A stretch of 64,000 bases of DNA from a virus: the UHGV virus genome UHGV-0039337; one strand, 5' to 3'. The position numbers were made by a program, and so were the translations under genes. Position 1 is the first letter of the stretch. Each line of letters opens with the position of its first letter. Shown one piece after another: positions 5,198-27,401 of this stretch. The notes under the pieces are model-generated. The model did no database searches, was not told the origin of the DNA, and saw only the letters and a program-made list of their open reading frames with translations.

Positions 5198-8100
5198 ATG
5201 ATTAATATAAGTTTTATACATTGTCATGTTCATACAATTTATTCTATGCTCGACGGCTACTGTAAAATAGATGACTTAATAGAAAAAGCCAAAGAATATA
5301 ATATGTCTTCAATATGTATAACTGATCATGGTACACTTGCAGGTATTTATGAGTTTAATGATAAATGCAAAAAAGCAGGATTAAAACCTATATTAGGTAT
5401 TGAAGTATATCAAACTCATGACATATCAAAAATAATACTGCCAGTAGAAGAAAGAAAAAAGATAGCTTGGGATAAATATTTAGAAATAAACAATATAACA
5501 GATGAAAAAAGCCTAGGCAAGCTAACTAATAAGAAAAAAGCAGAACTAAGTTCAGAATATATATATGATACCAAAGGATATCATTTAATCTTAATAGCAA
5601 AAAACCAAACAGGTTGGAATAATCTCGTTAAGTTAAGTAGTAAAGCAAATGATATAGCAATGTTTAATGGTAAAGGGCATATAGATTATAATTTATTAAA
5701 GCAATATAGCGAAGGATTAATATGCACTACAGCATGTATAAGTTCTATGTTTAATCATGCATTATCTAACAATAATATGGATAAAGCTGTTAAGCATATA
5801 AAAATATTATTGGATATATTTCATGATGATTTATACATAGAGTTACAACCTTTAGAATGGAATAAGCAGGTTGAAATAAATAAAAAAGCTATTAAAATAG
5901 CTAAACAATATAATATTAAAACTATAGCAACTAGTGATGTACATTATACCAATTATGAAGATGATTATGAACACGATATATTATTATGTATAGGTACTGG
6001 CAAAACATATAACGACCCTAATAGAATGAAATACGATCATGAATATTGGTTTAGAAATGAAAACGAAATGATAGATGGTTTTAATAGAAGTAATTATACA
6101 AGTGAAGAGATGCAAGCTATTAAAACTGCTATAAATAATACAACATTATTAGCAGATACTGTAGAAGATAATATACAAGTAGGTAGCGATCATGAACTAT
6201 TACCAGAGGTAGATGTACCTGAAGGTTATACAACTAAATCATGGTTAAAGCGTCAATGCTGGACTAACTTATATAAATATCTAACAGACAATAACTTAAT
6301 GGATAAACGTTATATTTATGAGTCTAGATTAAAAGAAGAACTTGATGTAATAATAACTAAAGGTTTTGCTGGATATATGTTAATAGTTCAAGACATAATA
6401 AATATTGGTCAACAAGCTGGTTGTAGTTTTGGGCCTGGACGTGGTAGCGTTGGTGGTTGTCTTGTAGCCTTCTTGCTCGGCATAAGTAAAGGAATAGATC
6501 CTATTGAATATGGATTACTATTCTTTAGATTTTTAACTGTTTCTAGAACTGCAAATCCAGATATTGATAGCGACTGCAGTCAGGTTGATAGACAAAAACT
6601 ATTAAGAATAATAAATAATAAGTATCATAACACTAATGTTACTCAAGTAGGTACATTAACTACATTAGGAGTTAAAAATGGCGTTAAAGATGTCATGCGT
6701 GTATTGAATTATAGTTTTGCAGAATCAAATGCTGTATCTAAAAAATTAGATGAAATATATGCTGAACCAGATTTATCTTTTAAAAAGCTTGATAGTTTTG
6801 AATCTGAAGATCCAGAATTATATAAAAAATATAAAGAGTTAGAATCAGAATATCCTAACGTATTTAAGTTAGCACGTAAATTTAATGGATGTCCTAGAAA
6901 TATGGGAGTACATGCTGGAGGTGTAGGTATAACACCTACTCCAATAAATGATATATATCCTACTAGAAATATTGATGGTAAAAAAGTTACTGTATGGGAA
7001 AAAGATACAATAGAAAAAGCAGGAATCGTCAAAATAGATATGTTAGGATTAAAAACTATATCTGTAATAGAATTATGCTTAAAGTTTATAAAAAAGAATC
7101 ATGATATAGATATATCATTAAACGAACTTTATAATAATAAAGAAATACGTAATGATTCTAATGTATTTAATATGCTATCAGAAGGTAAAACTGATGGTGT
7201 ATTTCAATTTGAAAGTAACTTATTTAAAAATGCTTGTAAGAACGTTAAACCTACAGATATAAATGACTTAATAGCAATTACTGCATTTAATAGACCTGGC
7301 CCATTATCTGCCGGCTTCGATAAGAAATATGCTAATAGAAAAAATGGATTAGAACCTGTAAATTATCCTTTAGGTTGTGATGATATATTAGGTGATACAT
7401 ACGGATGTCTATTATATCAAGAACAATGTATGTTAATATCAAAAAAGGTAGCTGGCTTCGATGATAATCAGGCAGATACATATTTAAGAAAATCACTAGC
7501 CAAAAAGAAACGTGCTTTAATAGATCTTTGTAGACAGTGGTTTATATATGGAAAACCTGAACATGACGAATACGGATCACCTATAGAAGGTGGTATTAAT
7601 AGAGGATATGATGAACAAGAACTTAAAGACTTTTTCGATGAGTTAGAAGGGTACGCTAGTTACGTTTTTAATAAAAGTCATGCAGCGAGTTATAGTCTTC
7701 TAACAGTAATTAGTGCATGGTTAAAATATTATTATTCTGAAGAATTCTTTGCAGCTCTTCTTACTTATTCAGTTGATGAAAAAGCTGATTTATATAATGA
7801 TATATTAAGTAAACAATATGACATACATATAACTGTACCAGATATAAAGAACTTATCTGAAAATTATAATCCAACACAAGGTAAAATAGCATATGGAATA
7901 TCTAAAATAAAAGGAGTAGGTGCTACAGCAATATCTACTATATTAAATGCAGGACCATATGAAAGTGTAGAAGATTTTATAACTAAAGTAAATAAGTATG
8001 ATAAAGCACGTGGTAGTAAAAAAACTGTTAATAAAACAGCTATTATTGCTCTTATTAAAGCAGGAGCTTTTGACTCCTTGGGTGAAACTAATAGATTTAA

Positions 8101-8509
8101 ATTAATTAATCAAGCTTATAATGCACGTAAAGATAAAGACGAAAGACTTGATGAATCTACATGGTCAAAATCTTGTGCTCAAGCATTAGAAATAGAGGTA
8201 TTAAATACATCTATAACTTATCCATTAATATTTAATTCTGCTATGGATAAAGATATTATAACTTTAGAAAACTGTAGAATAATAAACGTTACTGAGAAAA
8301 AAGATAAAAATGGTAAACTTATGGCTTTTGTAAAAGTAAAAGTTAATGATATAGAACCAGTAGATGTTGTAGTATTTAGTAGTTTATATTTAAATAATTA
8401 TGATTTATTTGATGTTAGATATGGCGATGTTATAAATATAACAGGAGAAAAAGACGGAAAGAAATTAAAATTTAAGAAAGGAAGAAGAGAAAAGAAAGAA
8501 GATAATTAA
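5198..8509 (+). CDS. dnaE: DNA polymerase III alpha subunit, DnaE-type (copy 1), with an N-terminal PHP domain
   Basis: Carries the PHP motif HCHVHTIYSMLDG, the catalytic region GPGRGSVGGCLVAFLLGIS, FNKSHAASYSLLTV..YY, and a C-terminal OB-like tail. The length is 1103 aa. Confidence 0.85.
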   Translation: MINISFIHCHVHTIYSMLDGYCKIDDLIEKAKEYNMSSICITDHGTLAGIYEFNDKCKKAGLKPILGIEVYQTHDISKIILPVEERKKIAWDKYLEINNITDEKSLGKLTNKKKAELSSEYIYDTKGYHLILIAKNQTGWNNLVKLSSKANDIAMFNGKGHIDYNLLKQYSEGLICTTACISSMFNHALSNNNMDKAVKHIKILLDIFHDDLYIELQPLEWNKQVEINKKAIKIAKQYNIKTIATSDVHYTNYEDDYEHDILLCIGTGKTYNDPNRMKYDHEYWFRNENEMIDGFNRSNYTSEEMQAIKTAINNTTLLADTVEDNIQVGSDHELLPEVDVPEGYTTKSWLKRQCWTNLYKYLTDNNLMDKRYIYESRLKEELDVIITKGFAGYMLIVQDIINIGQQAGCSFGPGRGSVGGCLVAFLLGISKGIDPIEYGLLFFRFLTVSRTANPDIDSDCSQVDRQKLLRIINNKYHNTNVTQVGTLTTLGVKNGVKDVMRVLNYSFAESNAVSKKLDEIYAEPDLSFKKLDSFESEDPELYKKYKELESEYPNVFKLARKFNGCPRNMGVHAGGVGITPTPINDIYPTRNIDGKKVTVWEKDTIEKAGIVKIDMLGLKTISVIELCLKFIKKNHDIDISLNELYNNKEIRNDSNVFNMLSEGKTDGVFQFESNLFKNACKNVKPTDINDLIAITAFNRPGPLSAGFDKKYANRKNGLEPVNYPLGCDDILGDTYGCLLYQEQCMLISKKVAGFDDNQADTYLRKSLAKKKRALIDLCRQWFIYGKPEHDEYGSPIEGGINRGYDEQELKDFFDELEGYASYVFNKSHAASYSLLTVISAWLKYYYSEEFFAALLTYSVDEKADLYNDILSKQYDIHITVPDIKNLSENYNPTQGKIAYGISKIKGVGATAISTILNAGPYESVEDFITKVNKYDKARGSKKTVNKTAIIALIKAGAFDSLGETNRFKLINQAYNARKDKDERLDESTWSKSCAQALEIEVLNTSITYPLIFNSAMDKDIITLENCRIINVTEKKDKNGKLMAFVKVKVNDIEPVDVVVFSSLYLNNYDLFDVRYGDVINITGEKDGKKLKFKKGRREKKEDN

Positions 8510-17896: not shown

Positions 17897-20800
17897 TTAT
17901 CTGGATATTTTAAGTAATTTTTTAGAGATAGTTGGTTTAGGTGCTCTATTAAATAGACTACGTAATTTTCTATGACCTCTATTATCCATAGGGATTTCTA
18001 TACGGTCAGGTTTTCTATTATGTTTCTTTTCTGTATTGCTTACTTGTTTTATATGAGTAGCTGATTTAAATAAATTTTTATCTACTGTATTTTTAATTCC
18101 GTCTACTACGTTTGAAGCTATTTGAGTTAATACATCTTGGTTATCACTCATGGCACGTAATCCTTCTTCACTAAATTTACCTTCCATTGATTGTGCGGCG
18201 TGTAATTTAGTAGCCATTAGAGATAGTGTAGCTTCTTGAGTAGTACCTTCATAATATAGGAAATATACAGTTATATCTTTAGTTTGTGACAATCTCCATG
18301 ATCTTCTTGACGCTTGTCTCATAGTATTTAAATTATATCCTAACTGATAAAATACTATAGTAGTAAAATCTAATAGATTTAATCCAGTTTCTATTAAAGA
18401 TGGATTACATATTAACACATCGTATTTGTCTTTAATTAGTTTATTAATAAATTCTTCACGCTTTTCTGCTTTAACAGATGCTTTTAACTCAGCACTTTTA
18501 TATCCATATGAATTTATTAGTAATCTTATATGGTCTCCTAGATTTGTAGTACCTACATCATTATAATATACTAATACCTTTTCTCCTGCTAATACTTTAG
18601 TATTTATTATATCTAATAGTGCTAAGTCTTTATTGGTTGTAAATTCTTCTATTTCTGGTGCAGCAAATAATAGATTACCATCTTCAGTTGCTTCATCTTC
18701 TATGCAATGTGGAGCATCAGGAATAGTAAGCATACGTCTACAATATTGTCTAAGATATTTTCTATTATTTATATCATTATCTGTAGCCATACGTTTTATG
18801 AATTGTTCATAACTATTATAATATTTCAATGTTGTTTCATCCATTTCTATACTATATGGTATTTCTGTATAATTAGGTAGTCCTTCTGTCATATCTTCAA
18901 GAGACACAAAGACTGTATTGTTTAATAGAAATTTAGTAAATACTAATGATGATATACCAGGAAGTAATTTAGAGCTTCTTTTTTTTACTGTTCTTCCATC
19001 TATTATGGAAGTAGTACTATTAACTCCATATATTCTATTAAATTCAGCTTCATCTTCGTAGTTAAATCCTTCTCTTTTCATAGATTGAGGAAGCAATCTA
19101 TATAATAAATAATACATACTATTTACGAATCCGTTCATTAATGTACCTGTCATGGTAATGGTTTTCTTGCATGATTGAGCTAAAATATGAAAGGCATGTC
19201 CTTGTTCTGTTTTACCTTTATAGCTTTGAGCTTCATCAAAAATTCCATAATCAAACACATTATTCATACGTTTTTTAATATAACTAGCTATAGGATACTT
19301 TTTAGTACCTATATATTTATTATTTACTGTGCCGTTTCTAATTAAACTATTATGTTGATCACTTAAGTTTGCAAATAATTCAGAGTCTTTACGCGTCATC
19401 TTAATTCCAGAATTTAAGTAATGATTCATTAATATTTCTATTGTGTCTTTATGAATCCATCCTGATTTACCTAATTTAACCCATTGTAAATTATCATCAT
19501 CTCTATTTACTGCAGTCCATAATTTATTATTACATTTTTTCTTTCTATACGCTTCTTCTTTAAAGTCATATACTTTAATAGTGTTAGTACATATATCATT
19601 AATAGAGTTTTCTTTAGTAAAATCAGTTAGATCTAATGGTACTATTCTTTTTACTTTACGTGATGCACCTGGGTAAATTGGTACAGTAACATACTTAGTA
19701 AGTACTTGTCCACATTCAGGGCATACAAATACATTATTTGCTTTTACCATGTTGCCATGTTCATTTTTGTAGTATCCAATCTTTTTAAACAATACAGCTG
19801 GTCTATTTCCATATCCTATTTTGGCACTTTCTTTAGATAATATTACAAAAGAATTTTCTATTTTATATGGATCAGTTAATATGTCTTTAATAGCTAATAA
19901 TTCTTCTAAGTTGTGTATTATATACGATCTACTATTAGGAACAAAACGTGCTACTTCATTTTTCCAGTTATTAACTAAGTGTGACGGACACATTACAAGA
20001 GTATTAAATCCTTTATTCTTATTAGCATTATGAACATAACAAGCTGCGGAAGCCATAAGAGTTTTACCACTACCCATTTCTCCGACTAAGAACGTATTAC
20101 TATTAACGTTCATATTATTCACTATAGCTTGTATTGCTGAACGTTGTGCTTCATATAAATTAACACCAGCATTATAATATGCATAATCATCTATGTTATA
20201 TAAATAATTATCATAAGTATCTTCACCCGGTATAAATTTAGGTCTAAAAGATGTTTGAATCTTTTTAGCTAATCCTTCTCCAAATAATTGCAAATAATTA
20301 TCTATTCCTGTACAGTTATCTAGTATTGTAGAATGTTCATTCGATCCCTTGATATTAATAACTTCACTATTAAGCCCATCACGTACTATTTCTTCTAATA
20401 TATGTCGTGATCCAATTAATACATAACATAGTAAAGGTTGTTTTCCCTCTAATGCATAATATTCAGTATCTAATTGATTAAATCTCAATTGTTCTTCTAA
20501 TTTCTGTTTTATATATGGTATCCATTCTCTAAGTATAGGTATAGATGAATATTTAACAAGACGTTTGTATAACTCATCTTCTATATTAGATTCGGAATTA
20601 GTAAATATATATGATGTATAATTTTCATGGTTATCTTTAGTAACATAACTATCATTTGCATATGCTATCATGTGCACATAATCAGAATTAGGCATTTTCT
20701 TTGTTTTAATTACATATTTACTACTTGATATTATATAATATCTATTGTTTGCATATATAGTATGTGTTTTATTGTTATTAAGCATAGGTTTAATCATATT

Positions 20801-20935
20801 AATAGTAGAATTATACCCAATCATAGATATGAATATTGCATGTCCATAATTATTTATGATTATTGTATCGGCTTTACAGCCACTAAAACCTCCAATAGAT
20901 ATATTAATATAATCGTTCATTCTTTCTGCTGTCAT
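17897..20935 (-). CDS. SNF2-like superfamily 2 helicase/ATPase with a large N-terminal extension
   Basis: Motif I is GEMGSGKTLMASAA and motif II is GIFDEAQSYKG (DEAQ). Motif III is TMTGTLMNG, and motif VI is QASRRSWRLSQTK. An internal CPECGQVL segment is zinc-ribbon-like. Confidence 0.6.
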   Translation of the reverse strand: MTAERMNDYINISIGGFSGCKADTIIINNYGHAIFISMIGYNSTINMIKPMLNNNKTHTIYANNRYYIISSSKYVIKTKKMPNSDYVHMIAYANDSYVTKDNHENYTSYIFTNSESNIEDELYKRLVKYSSIPILREWIPYIKQKLEEQLRFNQLDTEYYALEGKQPLLCYVLIGSRHILEEIVRDGLNSEVINIKGSNEHSTILDNCTGIDNYLQLFGEGLAKKIQTSFRPKFIPGEDTYDNYLYNIDDYAYYNAGVNLYEAQRSAIQAIVNNMNVNSNTFLVGEMGSGKTLMASAACYVHNANKNKGFNTLVMCPSHLVNNWKNEVARFVPNSRSYIIHNLEELLAIKDILTDPYKIENSFVILSKESAKIGYGNRPAVLFKKIGYYKNEHGNMVKANNVFVCPECGQVLTKYVTVPIYPGASRKVKRIVPLDLTDFTKENSINDICTNTIKVYDFKEEAYRKKKCNNKLWTAVNRDDDNLQWVKLGKSGWIHKDTIEILMNHYLNSGIKMTRKDSELFANLSDQHNSLIRNGTVNNKYIGTKKYPIASYIKKRMNNVFDYGIFDEAQSYKGKTEQGHAFHILAQSCKKTITMTGTLMNGFVNSMYYLLYRLLPQSMKREGFNYEDEAEFNRIYGVNSTTSIIDGRTVKKRSSKLLPGISSLVFTKFLLNNTVFVSLEDMTEGLPNYTEIPYSIEMDETTLKYYNSYEQFIKRMATDNDINNRKYLRQYCRRMLTIPDAPHCIEDEATEDGNLLFAAPEIEEFTTNKDLALLDIINTKVLAGEKVLVYYNDVGTTNLGDHIRLLINSYGYKSAELKASVKAEKREEFINKLIKDKYDVLICNPSLIETGLNLLDFTTIVFYQLGYNLNTMRQASRRSWRLSQTKDITVYFLYYEGTTQEATLSLMATKLHAAQSMEGKFSEEGLRAMSDNQDVLTQIASNVVDGIKNTVDKNLFKSATHIKQVSNTEKKHNRKPDRIEIPMDNRGHRKLRSLFNRAPKPTISKKLLKISR

Positions 20936-20951: not shown

Positions 20952-22415
20952 TTATGTTAAATTATAAAATGTTCCATCAGCACCTAATGCTGTTATCTGT
21001 ACTTTATTTCTTATTGTATCTGTAGATTCTGTAATTATTCTTCCATTTTGTGTTGATTGTTCGGTAACCCTATCTGTTTCTTTAATAGTCATACCTTTTA
21101 TTACGTGGCATATTTCACCACCTTCTTCTACTATACCATCAAGTGAACCTGATGATAAAATAAGTCCTATTTGTCCTATATTAAAAGGAAGTAAGGGACT
21201 CTTGTCTTCTTCTTCTATATGTTCATTTACTGATTTGTAAAATTCATCATATAATCCATCATTTAGTATAGCATCATCTAGTTCTTGTTTATCTAGTATA
21301 CTACCTCTGAATATTTTAATTTCTTCTTCTGGTAAATTAATAGTATATGATTCAGTTAAATAGTTTAATAAATCATCATATTTTATTCTAGATAATCTAT
21401 TAAATTCATCGCTATAAGATGGATTTGATGATTTAATACCTATTATAGTTACATATTTAAGTGCATGTCGGTTTTTATTCATATCATCATCAAATTGTGG
21501 ATCGGTACATTTAAATATTTGAATGTTCTTGAGATTCTTAGCTAAGAATAATTTAAAACTTGGAGATATATCATAAAATGGTAAATTAAGAATGAATATA
21601 CCGCCTAATTTTAAATAACGCATACTATTAGTAATTTGTATATCTTCATTAGTAACTGCTAATCTGCCATCAATCTTTTTAGTGGTATTTATTGTTAATC
21701 TAGGATTAACATATACTATATCGAATACATTGTTACTAATAATAGAGCCTTTAATAGATCCTAAAGCTACTCTATCCATATTATCTTTAGCTTTATCGGA
21801 GCCATAAGTCTCTTCACTTAATCCATAAGTCTTAACTGTTATATTATTATTTCTTTCTAGTTTATATTTTAAAAAGTATTCGTCTTCTCCTTCTCCACAT
21901 TGTATAGAGAATATATTTAATGATTTATTAGTTTTTATGTTGTCTGTTATTTCTGTTATAAAATCTGGATGCATTTTATATATATTTGTATTATCTTCTC
22001 TTATTTCTTTTGCTGCATATGATAAATTATAGCTACATAAATTATAACATTCATTAATTGCATTATTTATAGTATTTACACATGTATCATTAAATGCTTC
22101 TTTAATAGTTTGTATAGTTTCGCATTCCATAACTGTATTTAAAAAAGACTCTATCGTATTTTTATGTGATTGTATTCTCTCAAATACTGTATAGTCATCA
22201 TCAATAATACACAATGTATAATTAAATAGTCTTATACATTCTGTAGCATGTTTATATATAATAGAGCGTGATTTATTTATATCTTCTTTATCTGCTAAAC
22301 TAATTGTAATGTATGATCTAAGAGTATTAAGTTTAATTACTAACTCTTGTGATGGTCTGTAAAATGAAGTTGTTATATATATCACTCCTTTTTCTAATAA
22401 TAAAGGAGCGTACAT
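20952..22415 (-). CDS. Hypothetical protein with degenerate amino-methyltransferase-like motifs
   Basis: IFSIQCGEGEDEYFL is motif I-like. About 60 aa later, DIVYVNPRL resembles the D-hh-x-NPPY motif IV but carries NPRL. Any catalytic role is uncertain. Confidence 0.4.
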   Translation of the reverse strand: MYAPLLLEKGVIYITTSFYRPSQELVIKLNTLRSYITISLADKEDINKSRSIIYKHATECIRLFNYTLCIIDDDYTVFERIQSHKNTIESFLNTVMECETIQTIKEAFNDTCVNTINNAINECYNLCSYNLSYAAKEIREDNTNIYKMHPDFITEITDNIKTNKSLNIFSIQCGEGEDEYFLKYKLERNNNITVKTYGLSEETYGSDKAKDNMDRVALGSIKGSIISNNVFDIVYVNPRLTINTTKKIDGRLAVTNEDIQITNSMRYLKLGGIFILNLPFYDISPSFKLFLAKNLKNIQIFKCTDPQFDDDMNKNRHALKYVTIIGIKSSNPSYSDEFNRLSRIKYDDLLNYLTESYTINLPEEEIKIFRGSILDKQELDDAILNDGLYDEFYKSVNEHIEEEDKSPLLPFNIGQIGLILSSGSLDGIVEEGGEICHVIKGMTIKETDRVTEQSTQNGRIITESTDTIRNKVQITALGADGTFYNLT

Positions 22416-22420
22416 ATAAC

Positions 22421-25400
22421 TTACGCTCCTATACTATTTATTATTATTTTATTATCATCTGTAAACTTTCCTTTAAAGTTTATAGTTTTGTCTTTTTTTA
22501 AATTACTTTTATATTTATCTAGATTGAATAATAAAGCTTCATAATTACCTTCTTTAGTATCTAATGATATAAAAGCATATCTCTTTCCTGATTTAGCTTT
22601 ACGTTTAGTCACTTTTGTTATAATAGCTTGGCCACTTACATAAATATCATTATATTTAAGGTCTTCCAGATTACAACACTTATTATGAATATAATTAGCT
22701 TGACATAAAATTAATTCTATCTCATCTTCTGATGCATATAGTTCCAGGTTAGTATCTTTATTAATGAATATAGAGTATTTAGGTGGATCTGGATGTTTTT
22801 TCTTGGCTGAAAGATAATATAATTCTTCATATAATTCTATAACATTAGAGCCAAATGCTCCTATTGCTATCATGCTATTTAATGCTTTTGTATTACATAT
22901 ACTTTTATTTACATGTTTATATATATGAGCCACTAAAGAATCATCTTTATTTTCTTTTTCTTTATTTAGCCAATAAGTAGCAGCATTATAAGCGTTCTCA
23001 GATACATTTGCAAGGCAGCAGAAGCCGAGTCTAATCCCCTCTGTTTCTACTGTACATTTGTATTTTGATTTAGTTATATCAAGAGGTAGAAATTTAATAC
23101 CTACTTTCATACATTCATTTTGTATTGTTTTAAATTTAGCTTTACGTTCATCAGTTTTACCTGATTTATTATTATACATACAAGTTAAAGTTGCCGCATA
23201 AAATTCTTTAGGATAGTAAATTTTATAATATGCTGTTTCATAACAAGTTAAAGCATAAGCTACAGCATGAGATTTGTTGAAACTATATTTCCCTGAATCT
23301 AATATTAATTGAAATATTTTTTCAAATATATCATCAGTCATAATATTTTTACTTAACTCTTTTAATTCTGCTTTATATGAAGCTATTTTATCAAATTTTT
23401 TTTTGCTAGATGATTTCATAAGCGAATATGCTTCATGCAATGGCAATCCCATATTTGCACAACATTGCATTAATTCTTCTTGATAAATCATAACTCCATT
23501 AGTTGTCTTAGTAGCTTTATCATAAGCTGGATGTATATATTCTATATTTTCTTTGCCTTCTTGTATTTTCATATAATGTTCATCGAGCCCTGATTGAATA
23601 CAAGGGCCACGGACAAGAGCAAGACAATCAGCAAGTTGTTCTATATTACGTGGGTTTAATCTTCTCATGCGTTGTTTGTAAGTATTACTGCCTATTTGAA
23701 ATAGCCCTGTAGTATTACGAGAACAGATTAAATCCCATACTTTTTTATCATTTAATGGATCAAATTCTATATCTATTTTATGACCTGTAAGTTTTTCACA
23801 TTCGCTTAATATACATAAAGTATTTAATCCTAAATAATCATATTTTACTAAGGCCTGACTTTCTGCATCATGTAAATCAAGGGCTGTAGCATTTAATTCT
23901 TTTTTGTCTTGTCTAACCATTGGTGCTACATCAGATACTTTAGATTTAACTATTAATGTACCTGCTGCATGTATAGAAGTATGACATGGTAAACCTTCAA
24001 GCTTCATAGCCATTTCAAATACTTCTGGATATATTTCTTGCCACTCTCTAAGTTCTGGTACTATCTCTAATGATTCTTCTATTGATAAATCGCTTTGCTT
24101 TTCTGTGCCATCTTCAGATTCTTCATATACACATTGAGGTATTAGTTTAGCTATTTTATCTTCGGTCTTTAAGTCTATATTATATAATTTGCATACGCTT
24201 CTTATTGATGATCTTGCTTTACGTATACTAAAAGTAGATACAGCTGCACAATGATCAAGTCCATAAGTATCTAAAGTATACTTAAACATAATATCTCTAT
24301 AGTCACTAGGCACATCTATATCTATGTCAGGGTATTGTGCCCTTGCGGTGTATACTTAAAAATCTATCAAACATAAGATTATATTTAATAGAATCTACTT
24401 TGGTTATTTGAAGTAAATAAGCAACAATAGATCCGCATACGCTGCCTCTTCCAGGGCCCATTTTTGCTCCAATCTTATTCATATATTGTATTAGATCTCT
24501 TGTTATTAAAAAATAAGAACTAAATCCTAAATCATCTATAACTTTAAGCTCTTCATACATTCTATCAACGTATTGTGCTGGATTTTTAATTTTATATTGT
24601 ATTTGATCTAATCTTTCTAAACATAATTTTTCTATATAAGTTTTAGGAATATAACCTGTAGGACATTCAAATTCTGGAAGGTTTAACTCTTCTTGGTTGA
24701 AATCATATGATTCAACTTTATTAGATAAGTCCATAGTATTGTCTAATGCTTGATTAATTATATCTGCATTATACAATTCACTATTAAAAGAATTAAAGAT
24801 TTCATCTCTAGACATCATATAATATATTTTATCTGCATATATACTTTCATCTTCATTTTCTGGTGCTTTTAAATTACGCGTAATTCTTATATGAAAATCA
24901 TGAGTTTTCCAATCTTCCTTATTTATATAATGCACATCATTAGTAGCAATGAGTTTAATGTTTTTCTCTTCTGCTATATTAATCATTGCATTATTAACTT
25001 TAATTTGTTCATCAAAATTACCTGGTTGAATTTCTAAATATAAGTCATCTCTGAACATATTATATAATTCTTCAATATGATTAATAGCTTGTTCATTTTC
25101 ATTGTTTATAATAAGTTGAGGGGCATATCCTCCTACACAAGCTGTAGTACAGATAAGCCCCTCAGTATAGTCTTTTATATGTTCTAAATCTATACGTGGT
25201 TTATAATAATAATATTCAACAGATGCATCTGATACTATTTTCAATAAGTTAGATATGCCTGTTTTATTTTTAGCTATTAATACCATATGATATAACTTTT
25301 TATGTTCACTGTCTTTAATAGTACAGTCTTCACATAAATATATTTCACAGCCTATAAGTGGTTTAATATTATTGTTTATACACTCATAATAGAATCCATA

Positions 25401-25577
25401 CATATTACTTAAAGATCCGTGATCTGTTATAGCTATGGATTTCATATTAAGTTTTTTAGCTTTAGCAATTATATCTTTATTTGTAGCGATGGAATCTCCT
25501 ACCGATCCTTTTGTAGTATGCAAATGAGTTATGCAATAATTATTATAATAAGAAGTCATCGTTATCATCTTCTTCAT
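22421..25577 (-). CDS. dnaE: DNA polymerase III alpha DnaE-type (copy 2); the reading frame needs a +1 shift at CCC-TGA-C (plus 24326-24332)
   Basis: The N-terminal ORF (25577-24327) has PHP motif HLHTTKGSVGDS and GPGRGSVCGSIVAYLL, ending ...HRKGTIP-stop. The +1 frame continues directly as DIDIDVPSDYRD..., matching copy 1 (NPDIDSD), with FNKSHAVAYALTCYETAYYKIYYP downstream. The merged length of about 1046 aa is normal for DnaE. Confidence 0.65.
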
Positions 25578-25857: not shown

Positions 25858-26253
25858 TTATTCCTTTCTATATTCTTTACATTCTTGATTATTATATTCT
25901 AATATTTCTCTTAATATTGATCTATGACATATAATATCATTTTTTTCATAACAGATAAGGAATATAGTATATCCTTCATTATTTAAATCTATTATTTCTT
26001 TTAATCCATCAATGAAAAATGGATTGTCAAATGACTCATCTATATATTTTTGTCTATACTCTTTCCAATCAATACTACCATCTTTATACTTGGCTAATGT
26101 AAGTTCCGTGGGCGCAAGTTGAGGCGCCCACTCTATATTATATTTTTTTACGTTTATAGTATTTCTAGGTTTCCATCTAGTTATTAAAAATTTCTTAGTT
26201 GTATCATCATTTGGTAGATTTTTTAAGTTAGACAAATAAGTTGTGTATATCAT
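25858..26253 (-). CDS. DUF488-family protein
   Basis: LITRWKPRN...WAPQLAPTELTLAKYKDGSIDWKEYRQKY...IFLICYEKNDIICHRSILREIL matches the DUF488 pattern (W.P.LaPS..L...y..g.i.W.eF...Y..e ... C.E......CHR). Confidence 0.5.
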   Translation of the reverse strand: MIYTTYLSNLKNLPNDDTTKKFLITRWKPRNTINVKKYNIEWAPQLAPTELTLAKYKDGSIDWKEYRQKYIDESFDNPFFIDGLKEIIDLNNEGYTIFLICYEKNDIICHRSILREILEYNNQECKEYRKE

Positions 26254-26549
26254 TAATGACAGCCACCATTACAAACTCCATTACAATCTCTACTACATGT
26301 ATGTGCTTTTGATTCATTTAAGTTATGAGAAAACTTTTCTTTTCTTGAATCATACTTTTCTTGCATCATACTTCCAGTAGAACCATAACCATCTGCACCT
26401 CTTGTAGTTTCATCTAATTCATCTACTATAAAAGGTTGTGCTTCAAGTACTGGACATAATACTAATTGCGCAATTTTAGCATATTTCTTTAATACAAATG
26501 GTTCTGTTCCTATATTTTCTAGTTCAATACCTATTTCTCCTCTATATTT
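26253..26549 (-). CDS. dut: dUTPase exon 2 (motifs III C-terminal half, IV and V)
   Basis: Begins KYRGEIGIELENIG, then ...AQLVLCP, then TRGADGYGSTG (motif V). The TTG used by the ORF caller is in fact the last codon of the intron, ending in omega-G. Confidence 0.7.
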   Translation of the reverse strand, partial: KYRGEIGIELENIGTEPFVLKKYAKIAQLVLCPVLEAQPFIVDELDETTRGADGYGSTGSMMQEKYDSRKEKFSHNLNESKAHTCSRDCNGVCNGGCH

Positions 26550-27401
26550 CAATTTGTTATGTATAGGCTCTTTATCCTATACTCTCCTACTTTCGTAGAA
26601 GTATCGGACTATATCATTAACTCTCATATAGAGAGCAGAGCGGGGCGCTCGTGTCGGTTTTATTGTTTACCTTACTCAACCGTTAGTCTCTGAACCTTCC
26701 GTATACTTTATAGGCTTCTACGGCTTGGCTGCTGATTAGCATATCTTTCGACTTAGCCTTCCAGCAATTCACCCCGTTTAAAGACTCCAAATTTATTTTG
26801 CTTTATTATATTTTCCTAAAATGTCATGTAATTTGGAATGCTTTGATCTTGATAATATAATTAAATTAGTAGGATCATTATTTATTTTATTTTCATCTAT
26901 ATGATGTACATCATAATTTGGATTTAAATACCATTTGCCATCTATTAATACTGCACAAGATTCAGTAAGTAAATACTGTTCTGCAATTAGCCTATGCTCT
27001 CTAATTCTTCCGAATTTATTTGCAAAAGGATGATCGGGAACATAAACATATATGTAATCATTATACAGTATTTTATTTTGAGTAAAACTAGCATTCAATG
27101 GACCTTTTAATCCATATTGATGATTTCCTTCTCCTTTCATATAATTACTTTTATTGATAATATTACACTCTTCTGAACAAGTTATCATATCTGGATGTTT
27201 TAGTCTTTTAAGTCTTGAAGGTTTAACATAAAATTTTGTGCCGCATATACAACATGAAACATTTGGTTTTTTATTCCATTTATTATACATGTCAGCACAC
27301 GCATGACTACAAACATTTTTTCTATGCTTTTTTATATTATCTGTTTCGTATTCTTCATTACAATAATCGCAATGTCTTAACAATTAAGCGACATCTCCCT
27401 T
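26550..27401 (-). mobile_element. Group I intron (852 nt) in dut with an HNH homing endonuclease gene
   Basis: Splits dUTPase motif III (GTIDS | KYRGEI). Exon 1 ends in U and the intron ends in G. The GC-rich 3' core contains canonical R (GGUUCAGAGACUAAC) and S (AAUGAUAUAGUCCGA) elements forming P7, GACUA paired with UAGUC. Confidence 0.7.
26793..27383 (-). CDS. Intron-encoded HNH homing endonuclease
   Basis: Carries DVHHIDENKINNDPTNLIILSRSKHSKLH (HNH) plus N-terminal Cys-rich zinc fingers. It is in frame with dut exon 1, separated only by TAA, and the ORF caller used a TTG start. Confidence 0.6.
   Translation of the reverse strand: MLRHCDYCNEEYETDNIKKHRKNVCSHACADMYNKWNKKPNVSCCICGTKFYVKPSRLKRLKHPDMITCSEECNIINKSNYMKGEGNHQYGLKGPLNASFTQNKILYNDYIYVYVPDHPFANKFGRIREHRLIAEQYLLTESCAVLIDGKWYLNPNYDVHHIDENKINNDPTNLIILSRSKHSKLHDILGKYNKAK

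Follow-up and report, generated by a model that had tools for sequence, protein, structure and literature searches.

A predicted +1 shifty stop, CCC_UGA_C, directly upstream of the catalytic aspartates in a second DnaE-type DNA polymerase gene of gut phages

Reading frames at the interrupted polymerase gene

The present analysis concerns a stretch of 64,000 nt from the UHGV virus genome UHGV-0039337 (the window, by which we mean that whole stretch), in which a gene for a DnaE-type DNA polymerase on the minus strand is broken into two overlapping open reading frames (ORFs; Table 1). The minus-strand reading at the break is AGT ATA CAC CGC AAG GGC ACA ATA CCC TGA C, such that ORF1 ends at a UGA codon preceded by proline, and the +1 frame, read from position 24328, translates as DIDIDVPSDYRDI... 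for 635 codons. An original prediction made from the sequence of the window had proposed that this gene, the second of its type in the phage, requires a +1 shift at CCC_UGA_C to encode a full-length polymerase.

Table 1. Features of the polymerase locus, its paralog and the neighbouring genes in the window.
Feature	Position	Strand	Description
ORF1, including stop	24327..25577	-	416 aa; C-terminus ...SIHRKGTIP
ORF1, zero-frame coding part	24330..25577	-	PHP domain and the start (~100 positions) of the Pol III alpha palm
Shift site CCC UGA C	24326..24332	-	CCC 24332-24330, TGA 24329-24327, C 24326
ORF2, +1 frame	22421..24328	-	635 codons plus stop at 22423-22421; rest of the palm with catalytic Asp, fingers, HhH, OB-like
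DIDID codons GAC ATA GAT ATA GAT	24314..24328	-	Between UGA and GTG 24313, the first possible ORF2 start
Overlap, both frames open	24329..24355	-	9 codons, from the +1-frame TAA 24358-24356 to the zero-frame UGA
AAGGG, candidate Shine-Dalgarno-like element	24340..24344	-	7 nt upstream of CCC; encodes Lys-Gly
Intact DnaE-type paralog	5198..8509	+	1103 aa; NPDIDSD in frame
SNF2-type helicase gene	17897..20935		Intact, 1012 aa
DUF6094 protein	20952..22415	-	487 aa; uncharacterised methyltransferase family; directly downstream of the polymerase
dUTPase ORF	26253..26552	-	99 aa; 84 to 108 aa in several relatives
Free-standing HNH_3 endonuclease	26793..27383	-	196 aa; PF13392, 1.6e-6; between the dUTPase gene and upstream genes

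The true start of ORF1 is likely Met7 at 25559, which would yield a product of 410 aa, and the frame is gene-called at this length in the related loci L002, L004 and L014. ORF2 is listed as a frame of 630 aa that starts at GTG 24313 and ends at 22421. In DNA of 28% GC, the chance that a +1 frame stays free of stops for 635 codons was estimated at ~1e-24; the hexamer CCCTGA is not enriched in the window (9 occurrences found versus 7.8 expected). Since only the overlap is open in both frames, any shift must fall inside it, and its nine +1-frame codons upstream of UGA hold no ATG, GTG or TTG in the window. Within the overlap the shift would be placed at CCC|U, as only there is the ...GTIPDIDID... 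of in-frame relatives reproduced. Counted from the first ATG, the resulting fusion has 1051 aa, and 1045 aa if it starts at the Met preferred by gene callers in relatives; intact relatives measure 1044 to 1047 aa. With a fusion of 1045-1051 aa and homology that continues across the junction, the proposal that a +1 shift at CCC_UGA_C restores a full-length DnaE is supported.

Domain assignments divide the polymerase at the same point. ORF1 matches the Pfam families PF02811 (PHP; 2.8e-41) and PF07733 at profile positions 2-99, and ORF2 matches PF07733 at profile positions 103-260, PF17657, PF14579 and, weakly, PF01336, so that PF07733 is cut between the two ORFs at profile positions 99|103. The fusion aligns to the solved DnaE structures 2hpi and 2hnh with E-values of 1e-72 to 1e-75. 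In these alignments PDIDID corresponds to PDFDVD of E. coli DnaE (2hnh_A), the first two aspartates being the equivalents of D401 and D403, and KYDYLGL corresponds to KFDFLGL (the D555 motif). Decoding past the shift begins with the D401 equivalent, the D403 equivalent comes third, and the sequence across the junction, ...GTIP|DIDIDV, agrees with that of the in-frame homolog P0001. Only as the frameshifted fusion does the predicted gene product correspond to a C-family DNA polymerase of the DnaE type (Pol III alpha). The two DnaE-type polymerases of the phage share only 29% identity, the fusion and the paralog aligning from end to end (E 2e-113); across the junction RKGTIPDIDID is paired with RTAN-PDIDSD, as had been anticipated from the NPDIDSD segment of the paralog.

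Inheritance of an extra C in the window clade

Relatives of the fusion were sought among 5.8 billion proteins. Uninterrupted homologs (1044 to 1047 aa) were found at 88%, 85%, 81%, ~73% identity and below, and none of these proteins was an uninterrupted homolog above 88% identity. All homologs at 95 to 99% identity corresponded to a 622-aa C-terminal fragment, the cluster of which comprises 26 distinct sequences spread over dozens of contigs, some of them ~271 kb long. From the carrier loci that we fetched (L002-L005, L011, L012 and L014-L022; 15 SRA runs and two ENA assemblies), the sequence ATA CCC TGA CAT AGA TAT AGA T was recovered identically in 17 of 17. Sixteen of the 17 are independent of the window, deriving from the 15 SRA runs and assembly ERZ27287489; the C-part of the remaining locus, L014 (ERZ28615758, a 271,414-bp scaffold), is nucleotide-identical to the window and may represent the same genome, and was not counted as independent. 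At the corresponding position, in-frame relatives read ATA CCT GAC (L006, L013), CCA GAT (L007) or CCT GAC (L009). Given CCT GAC in these relatives and CCC TGA C in carriers, the window clade possesses one extra C, and the one-base C insertion that the original prediction had offered as an alternative is literally true in evolutionary terms.

A one-base difference in a short C run is a plausible error, with which the window by itself would be compatible, and the true sequence might then read CC rather than CCC. Such a sequencing or assembly artefact is nevertheless extremely improbable, since all 17 loci agree, the 16 independent runs and assemblies span several run series and assemblers, and the same site stands on distinct linked haplotypes. 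The extra C is also perfectly specific to the window lineage, being absent from the sister loci L006 and L013, and in a further locus from pig gut, L023, it is linked to nearby substitutions that separate L023 from L009. Nor are runs of three bases particularly error-prone in consensus sequences from short reads.

A megablast search of the gene against phage records returned no match, and tblastn against cultured phages gave at most 31% identity, with no close cultured relative. Scanning of IMG/VR proteins identified a single relative at 26% identity, a DNA pattern scan of IMG/VR gave just two chance matches in unrelated genes (L026, L027), and a pattern scan of JGI metagenomes, in which CC or CCN was allowed, gave one locus, the in-frame L013.

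Purifying selection on both sides of the site

Ratios of non-synonymous to synonymous divergence (dN/dS, omega) were estimated by the Nei-Gojobori method among carriers and versus in-frame sisters. For ORF1, comparison of the window with L004 yielded a dN/dS of 0.09 at a dS of 0.43. For ORF2, read in the +1 frame, comparisons of the window and L002 with L004, L005 and L012 yielded values of 0.05 to 0.06 at dS of 0.32 to 0.36. The in-frame sisters L006 and L013 show a dN/dS of 0.12 at a dS of 0.27, and carriers compared with in-frame sisters a value of 0.10 at a dS of ~0.75. Overall, carriers show a dN/dS of 0.04 to 0.10 on either side of the site, at dS up to 0.36 to 0.43, and constraint is no weaker than that indicated by the omega of 0.12 of in-frame sisters. 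The polymerase gene is under purifying selection in both frames. Its omega is not near 1, and no further stop or indel was found in the 635 ORF2 codons of any carrier locus (8 distinct C-part nucleotide sequences); the gene does not have the properties of a pseudogene, and the suggestion that it might be one is disfavoured by these values.

Between the two main haplotypes, we also found no tract of low divergence around the site. The bin of 150 nt that includes it holds 10 differences, and substitutions occur within ~25 nt on each side of it. This normal divergence up to the site indicates that the indel is older than the diversification of the clade and has not recently swept onto old backgrounds.

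These observations bear on the possibility that the copy is non-functional or dispensable, with an inactivating C tolerated by virtue of the paralog and with the apparent constraint reflecting pre-insertion history or recombination. An intact paralog is indeed present, in-frame and frameshifted alleles coexist in close genomes as would be the case for neutral loss, and no stimulatory element was found. However, the changes in ORF2 that underlie the above estimates, which fall after the insertion, comprise ~100 synonymous versus ~28 non-synonymous differences with no stop and no second indel, omega in carriers is not above that of in-frame sisters, and the indel could have swept recently only by way of a conversion tract shorter than ~50 nt. 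Random inactivation would moreover strike many positions, whereas the one position found to be hit, several times over, is that which yields the best-known +1 shifty stop. On this evidence we consider a dispensable copy improbable.

Recurrence of the site in other lineages

A search with ORF1 only recovered many N-terminal fragments from other lineages that end at the catalytic motif. For one of them, P0135, the corresponding DNA (L023) reads GTA CCC TGA C ATA GAT TTA GAC; ORF1 of this locus is 98.3% identical to the in-frame P0003, and its ORF2 differs from L009 by 36 synonymous and 5 non-synonymous differences (Sd 36, Nd 5). Additional C-terminal fragments begin MNVKDLYPDIDLD (P0255, 75% identical to ORF2 of the window), MSVKVLYPDIDLD (P0296) and ...SVKDLYPDIDCD (P0279, 50% identity), and all three starts are +1-frame readings of ...ERKGSVP*. 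Back-translation of the overlapping frames forces the sequence AAA GGN TCT GTA CCC TGA Y, paired with N-fragments ending ...KGSVP, with GGN being GGA for P0255 and P0279. More than 12 distinct N-fragments ending ...YERKGSVP were identified on more than 25 contigs, and P0255 shares its longest contig, of 224,341 bp, with the 410-aa N-fragment P0290. The sites of P0136, P0255, P0279 and P0147 were deduced from overlapping ORF products in this manner. At least three further lineages accordingly have the site, which was read from DNA in one (L023) and is dictated in the other two by the products of overlapping ORFs.

Alleles with the frameshift are interspersed among in-frame ones that resemble them closely (94 to 99% identity). 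For example, the frameshifted P0290 is 98.3% identical to the in-frame P0292, P0300 is 97.5% identical to the in-frame P0294, P0293 is 99.0% identical to the in-frame P0003, and both P0136 and P0304 are ~94% identical to the in-frame P0302. Either the C has been gained or lost repeatedly, or it represents an old polymorphism spread by recombination. Among relatives, no frameshift-type break was found elsewhere in the gene, and the other truncations correspond to intron sites or contig ends.

Shifty-stop frameshifting as the favoured explanation

Several properties of the motif are those of a shift-prone stop. CCC accounts for 10 of the 480 Pro codons in the window (2%), TGA for 6 of its 49 ORF stops, and the shift site is the only TGAC. 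Judging from base pairing, the tRNA on CCC in the P site could re-pair in the +1 frame (CCC_U to CCU), both here and in L023. UGA-C is a weak stop, and termination after Pro is slow (PMC3082878). In all carriers the codon before CCC is of the form xUA (AUA or GUA), which may have a bearing on release from the E site.

We conclude that the feature is real, inherited and under selection, and we regard it as quite probable that shifty-stop +1 ribosomal frameshifting at CCC_UGA_C produces the full-length second DnaE-type polymerase. In the course of events that we propose, insertion of one C turned CCT GAC (Pro-Asp) into CCC UGA C in a low-GC gut phage of ~271 kb. A translating ribosome with Pro-CCC in its P site would meet UGA-C in the A site, a weak stop following a C-terminal proline. 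Most ribosomes would probably terminate, releasing a PHP-containing fragment of 410 to 416 aa that ends in a truncated palm. In a fraction of them the peptidyl-tRNA-Pro would slip +1 onto CCU, skipping U24329, whereupon Asp-tRNA would read GAC and translation would go on for 635 codons, giving an enzyme of 1045 to 1051 aa with its active site, ...GTIPDIDID..., unchanged. The efficiency of this process may be low. The predicted full product would be ~120 kDa in size and contain the junction peptide GTIPDIDIDVPSDYR, and the separate fragments would be of ~47 kDa and ~72 kDa. Because the D401 and D403 equivalents are decoded past the shift and, in the window clade, no +1 start codon lies upstream of them, polymerase activity would need the shift.

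Alternatively, ORF1 and ORF2 may be made separately, by re-initiation or coupling after UGA, and the two polypeptides may then assemble into a split polymerase. Phage genes divided by mobile elements provide a parallel. Purifying selection on both halves is predicted here as well, and relatives are often truly split near the motif by introns with HNH genes. Candidate starts are also available: GTG 24313 sits 13 nt past UGA, the same codon being GTA, a non-start, in the in-frame L006, and Val-type alleles have a +1-frame ATG 7 codons upstream. In the window clade, however, the C-fragment would lose the D401 and D403 equivalents and hence be catalytically dead. Neither GTG 24313 nor ATG 24289 is preceded by a GGAGG-type Shine-Dalgarno sequence, although the phage uses strong ones, and no Shine-Dalgarno sequence precedes the ATG of L023. 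Furthermore, 4 of the 5 sites that vary among haplotypes between UGA and ATG 24289 are third positions of the +1 frame (hand count, p ~0.045), which weakly argues that this stretch is translated and against a start at that ATG. Separate synthesis of the two halves thus appears unlikely.

A number of observations weigh against programmed frameshifting at the site. The RNA downstream showed no significant structure, its minimum free energy being no better than that of shuffles (z = -0.11), and a consensus fold of four haplotypes contained no covarying or compensatory pairs. The AAGGG element, which had been put forward as a stimulator like that of prfB, lies at the wrong distance (7 nt from CCC, as opposed to the 3 nt that separate the prfB element, AGGGGG, from its shift codon). 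It codes for Lys-Gly and is the same in L006, which is in frame. No tRNA genes, and hence no candidate suppressor or Pro tRNA, were found in the 64-kb window, out of a genome of ~271 kb, or in 9 related loci. On its own, CCC_UGA usually gives no more than 2% shifting in E. coli (PMC3082878). The coexistence of in-frame alleles is as compatible with a leaky, nearly neutral mutation as with a programmed signal, two of the additional lineages (P0255, P0279) are deduced from protein sequence only, and, with an intact paralog present, low or zero activity of the second copy may be tolerable. Finally, we infer both the slip itself and the trans-frame product from the sequence.

Other candidate mechanisms and elements were examined and set aside. 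A hairpin in the consensus fold begins inside UGA, too close to act as a stimulator on a ribosome with CCC in its P site; in the same fold AAGGG and CCCU form a 4-bp hairpin without demonstrated significance. A scan of the whole window against Rfam identified no family at the gathering threshold. Reassignment of TGA to sense would leave the zero frame to meet TAG six codons later. Transcriptional slippage or phase variation was rejected because CCC is present in every carrier assembly of the window clade; a run of three C is, besides, too short for either process.

Comparison with known recoding systems

CCC_UGA has been described as especially prone to +1 shifting (PMC3082878, PMC5009743, PMC10861913), and 19 E. 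coli genes end in it (PMC3082878). With CCC rather than CUU as the shift codon, the shifty stops of Listeria phages and of pheL are closer precedents than RF2 (release factor 2), and the RF2-like context of the original prediction should be revised in this respect. In the Listeria phages PSA, A118 and A500, CCC_UGA is used in the tail gene tsh (PMC5009743, PMC3082878), the host being of low GC with CCC making up 5% of Pro codons (PMC3082878, PMC5009743). The tsh site resembles the present one in its P-site CCC followed by an A-site UGA, in its setting, a phage whose host is low in GC, uses Shine-Dalgarno sequences and rarely employs CCC (5% versus 2%), and in a +1 frame that runs on into a functional protein. 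The two differ in that the tsh shift extends a structural protein at its C-terminus, both products being used, whereas the shift described here falls 40% into an enzyme, right before its catalytic aspartates, with a truncated palm as the termination product and with a signal that is polymorphic with in-frame alleles.

The same motif, and the same proposed P-site slippage, occurs in E. coli pheL (UUC_CCC_UGA), where shifting reaches 15% (PMC3082878, PMC5009743); with a nascent-peptide stimulator, up to 60% has been reported for CCC_UGA (PMC3082878, PMC5009743, PMC10861913). Both pheL and the E. coli genes ending in CCC_UGA illustrate that the motif alone measurably shifts +1 and that nascent-peptide context can raise the level. 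Contrary to the 635 +1 codons under strong purifying selection here, the +1 product of pheL is unconserved and was judged incidental. In prfB, which encodes RF2, CUU_UGA_C likewise places UGA-C in the A site, the P-site tRNA slips +1, and output is expected to depend on RF2. The polymerase site nonetheless has CCC as its shift codon and lacks a Shine-Dalgarno-like element 3 nt upstream, and its product is not a release factor, hence there is no obvious feedback loop; it does not constitute a prfB-type frameshift cassette.

Two further groups of systems offer partial parallels. Among savior indels, in which an indel in an enzyme gene is offset at low level during translation, examples include a G-run indel in herpesvirus thymidine kinase (PMC5009743) and a +1 insertion in E. 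coli rpoB rescued by 5% slippage at CCC_AGG (PMC10861913), and here too a slippery Pro codon is combined with a slow A-site codon. Those cases were single mutants obtained under drug selection or in the laboratory, whereas the present indel has reached fixation in a natural clade and is met again in several lineages of wild phages. The -1 frameshift in dnaX, which yields the tau and gamma subunits of DNA polymerase III (PMC5009743), is also a recoding event in the replicase machinery by which one gene specifies both a short and a long product, but it concerns the clamp loader rather than the alpha subunit, occurs at A_AAA_AAG in the -1 direction, and is stimulated by a Shine-Dalgarno sequence and a hairpin.

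Mobile insertions at the catalytic motif

A split of the gene by an intron or homing endonuclease is not what is found in the window, where the two frames overlap with an offset of 1 nt and no insert. Inserts do occur in relatives, 98 nt upstream of the site in L005, L019 and L013 and 4 nt downstream of it in L024. The first of these is a 1267-nt group I intron with a gene for a 301-aa HNH endonuclease (L005:2593-3859; also in L019 and the in-frame L013), inserted at GGAT|CTATT (Gly-Ser|Ile), a position equivalent to that between 24431 and 24430 of the window, which is without the intron. It covers the full RF00028 model at a score below threshold (23.8 bits, E 0.0015), and is found both with and without the extra C. 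In L024, from relatives at ~52% identity, an 833-nt insert with an HNH_3 gene (L024:6192-7024) lies between CCA GAT and ATA GAT, directly after the codon of the D401 equivalent and 4 nt from the position of the extra C in the window. The first bases of this insert are TAA and its last is G, and it weakly matches group I introns.

Fragment classes ending ...PD*, ...PDVD* and ...PDID* (P0140-P0161, P0303, P0305) likewise correspond to true insertions, some lineages being interrupted after the second Asp codon (the D403 equivalent), and intron-less alleles exist that are 97 to 100% identical to interrupted ones. Judged by these relatives, the catalytic PDxD motif of phage DnaE genes is a hot spot for mobile insertions. 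Bacterial DnaE fragments annotated as DNA polymerase III alpha (P0248, P0243, P0250, P0237) also end after ...LFER or ...PDIDI and carry unrelated tails; they include ~416-aa fragments from Clostridium perfringens and a 409-aa fragment from Tissierella. This suggests that cellular or prophage DnaE genes may also be interrupted by introns or inteins at neighbouring positions.

The proximity of these sites raises the more speculative idea, which we consider doubtful, that the extra C, rather than being a passive leaky mutation, is a toggle that recurs and is kept by selection at a hot spot of homing. An extra base placed 4 nt from an intron site may arise from endonuclease cleavage and repair, may block cleavage, or both, and would survive only since CCC_UGA_C permits a +1 slip. 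If so, translational recoding would form part of the defence of phages against selfish introns; a toggle might otherwise serve as a switch for the dose of the second replicase.

Neighbouring genes

The position of the DUF6094 gene is kept in all relatives examined. The SNF2-type helicase gene, intact in the window, is broken in L011 (L011:7353-9869) into a 291-aa piece and a further piece, with a 273-aa LAGLIDADG-like ORF between them, and this interruption looks like another optional mobile insertion in the replication module. The gene for the 196-aa HNH_3 endonuclease is present in most relatives and absent from L007. In L007 the dUTPase is 213 aa long (L007:8669-9310), and its size in the different loci suggests that the N-terminal part of this protein may be fused or truncated depending on the lineage.

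Implications for replication genes of gut phages

To our knowledge, no +1 recoding event is known in a catalytic DNA polymerase subunit, and full-text searches of a literature library identified no earlier report of one. Recoding at CCC_UGA is itself already known; what would be new is the class of gene, and the position of the site at the active site and its patchy recurrence next to intron sites are unusual. With the shift located right before the active-site aspartates, output of the enzyme would depend on the efficiency of termination at UGA, i.e. on RF2 activity. In dozens of gut phage assemblies, gene callers divide this polymerase gene into two "partial" polymerases. The coexisting alleles, at 94 to 99% identity, represent a natural experiment on the amount of frameshifting with which a replicase gene can manage, and the same alleles could reveal the interplay of the indel with the homing introns that crowd the motif.

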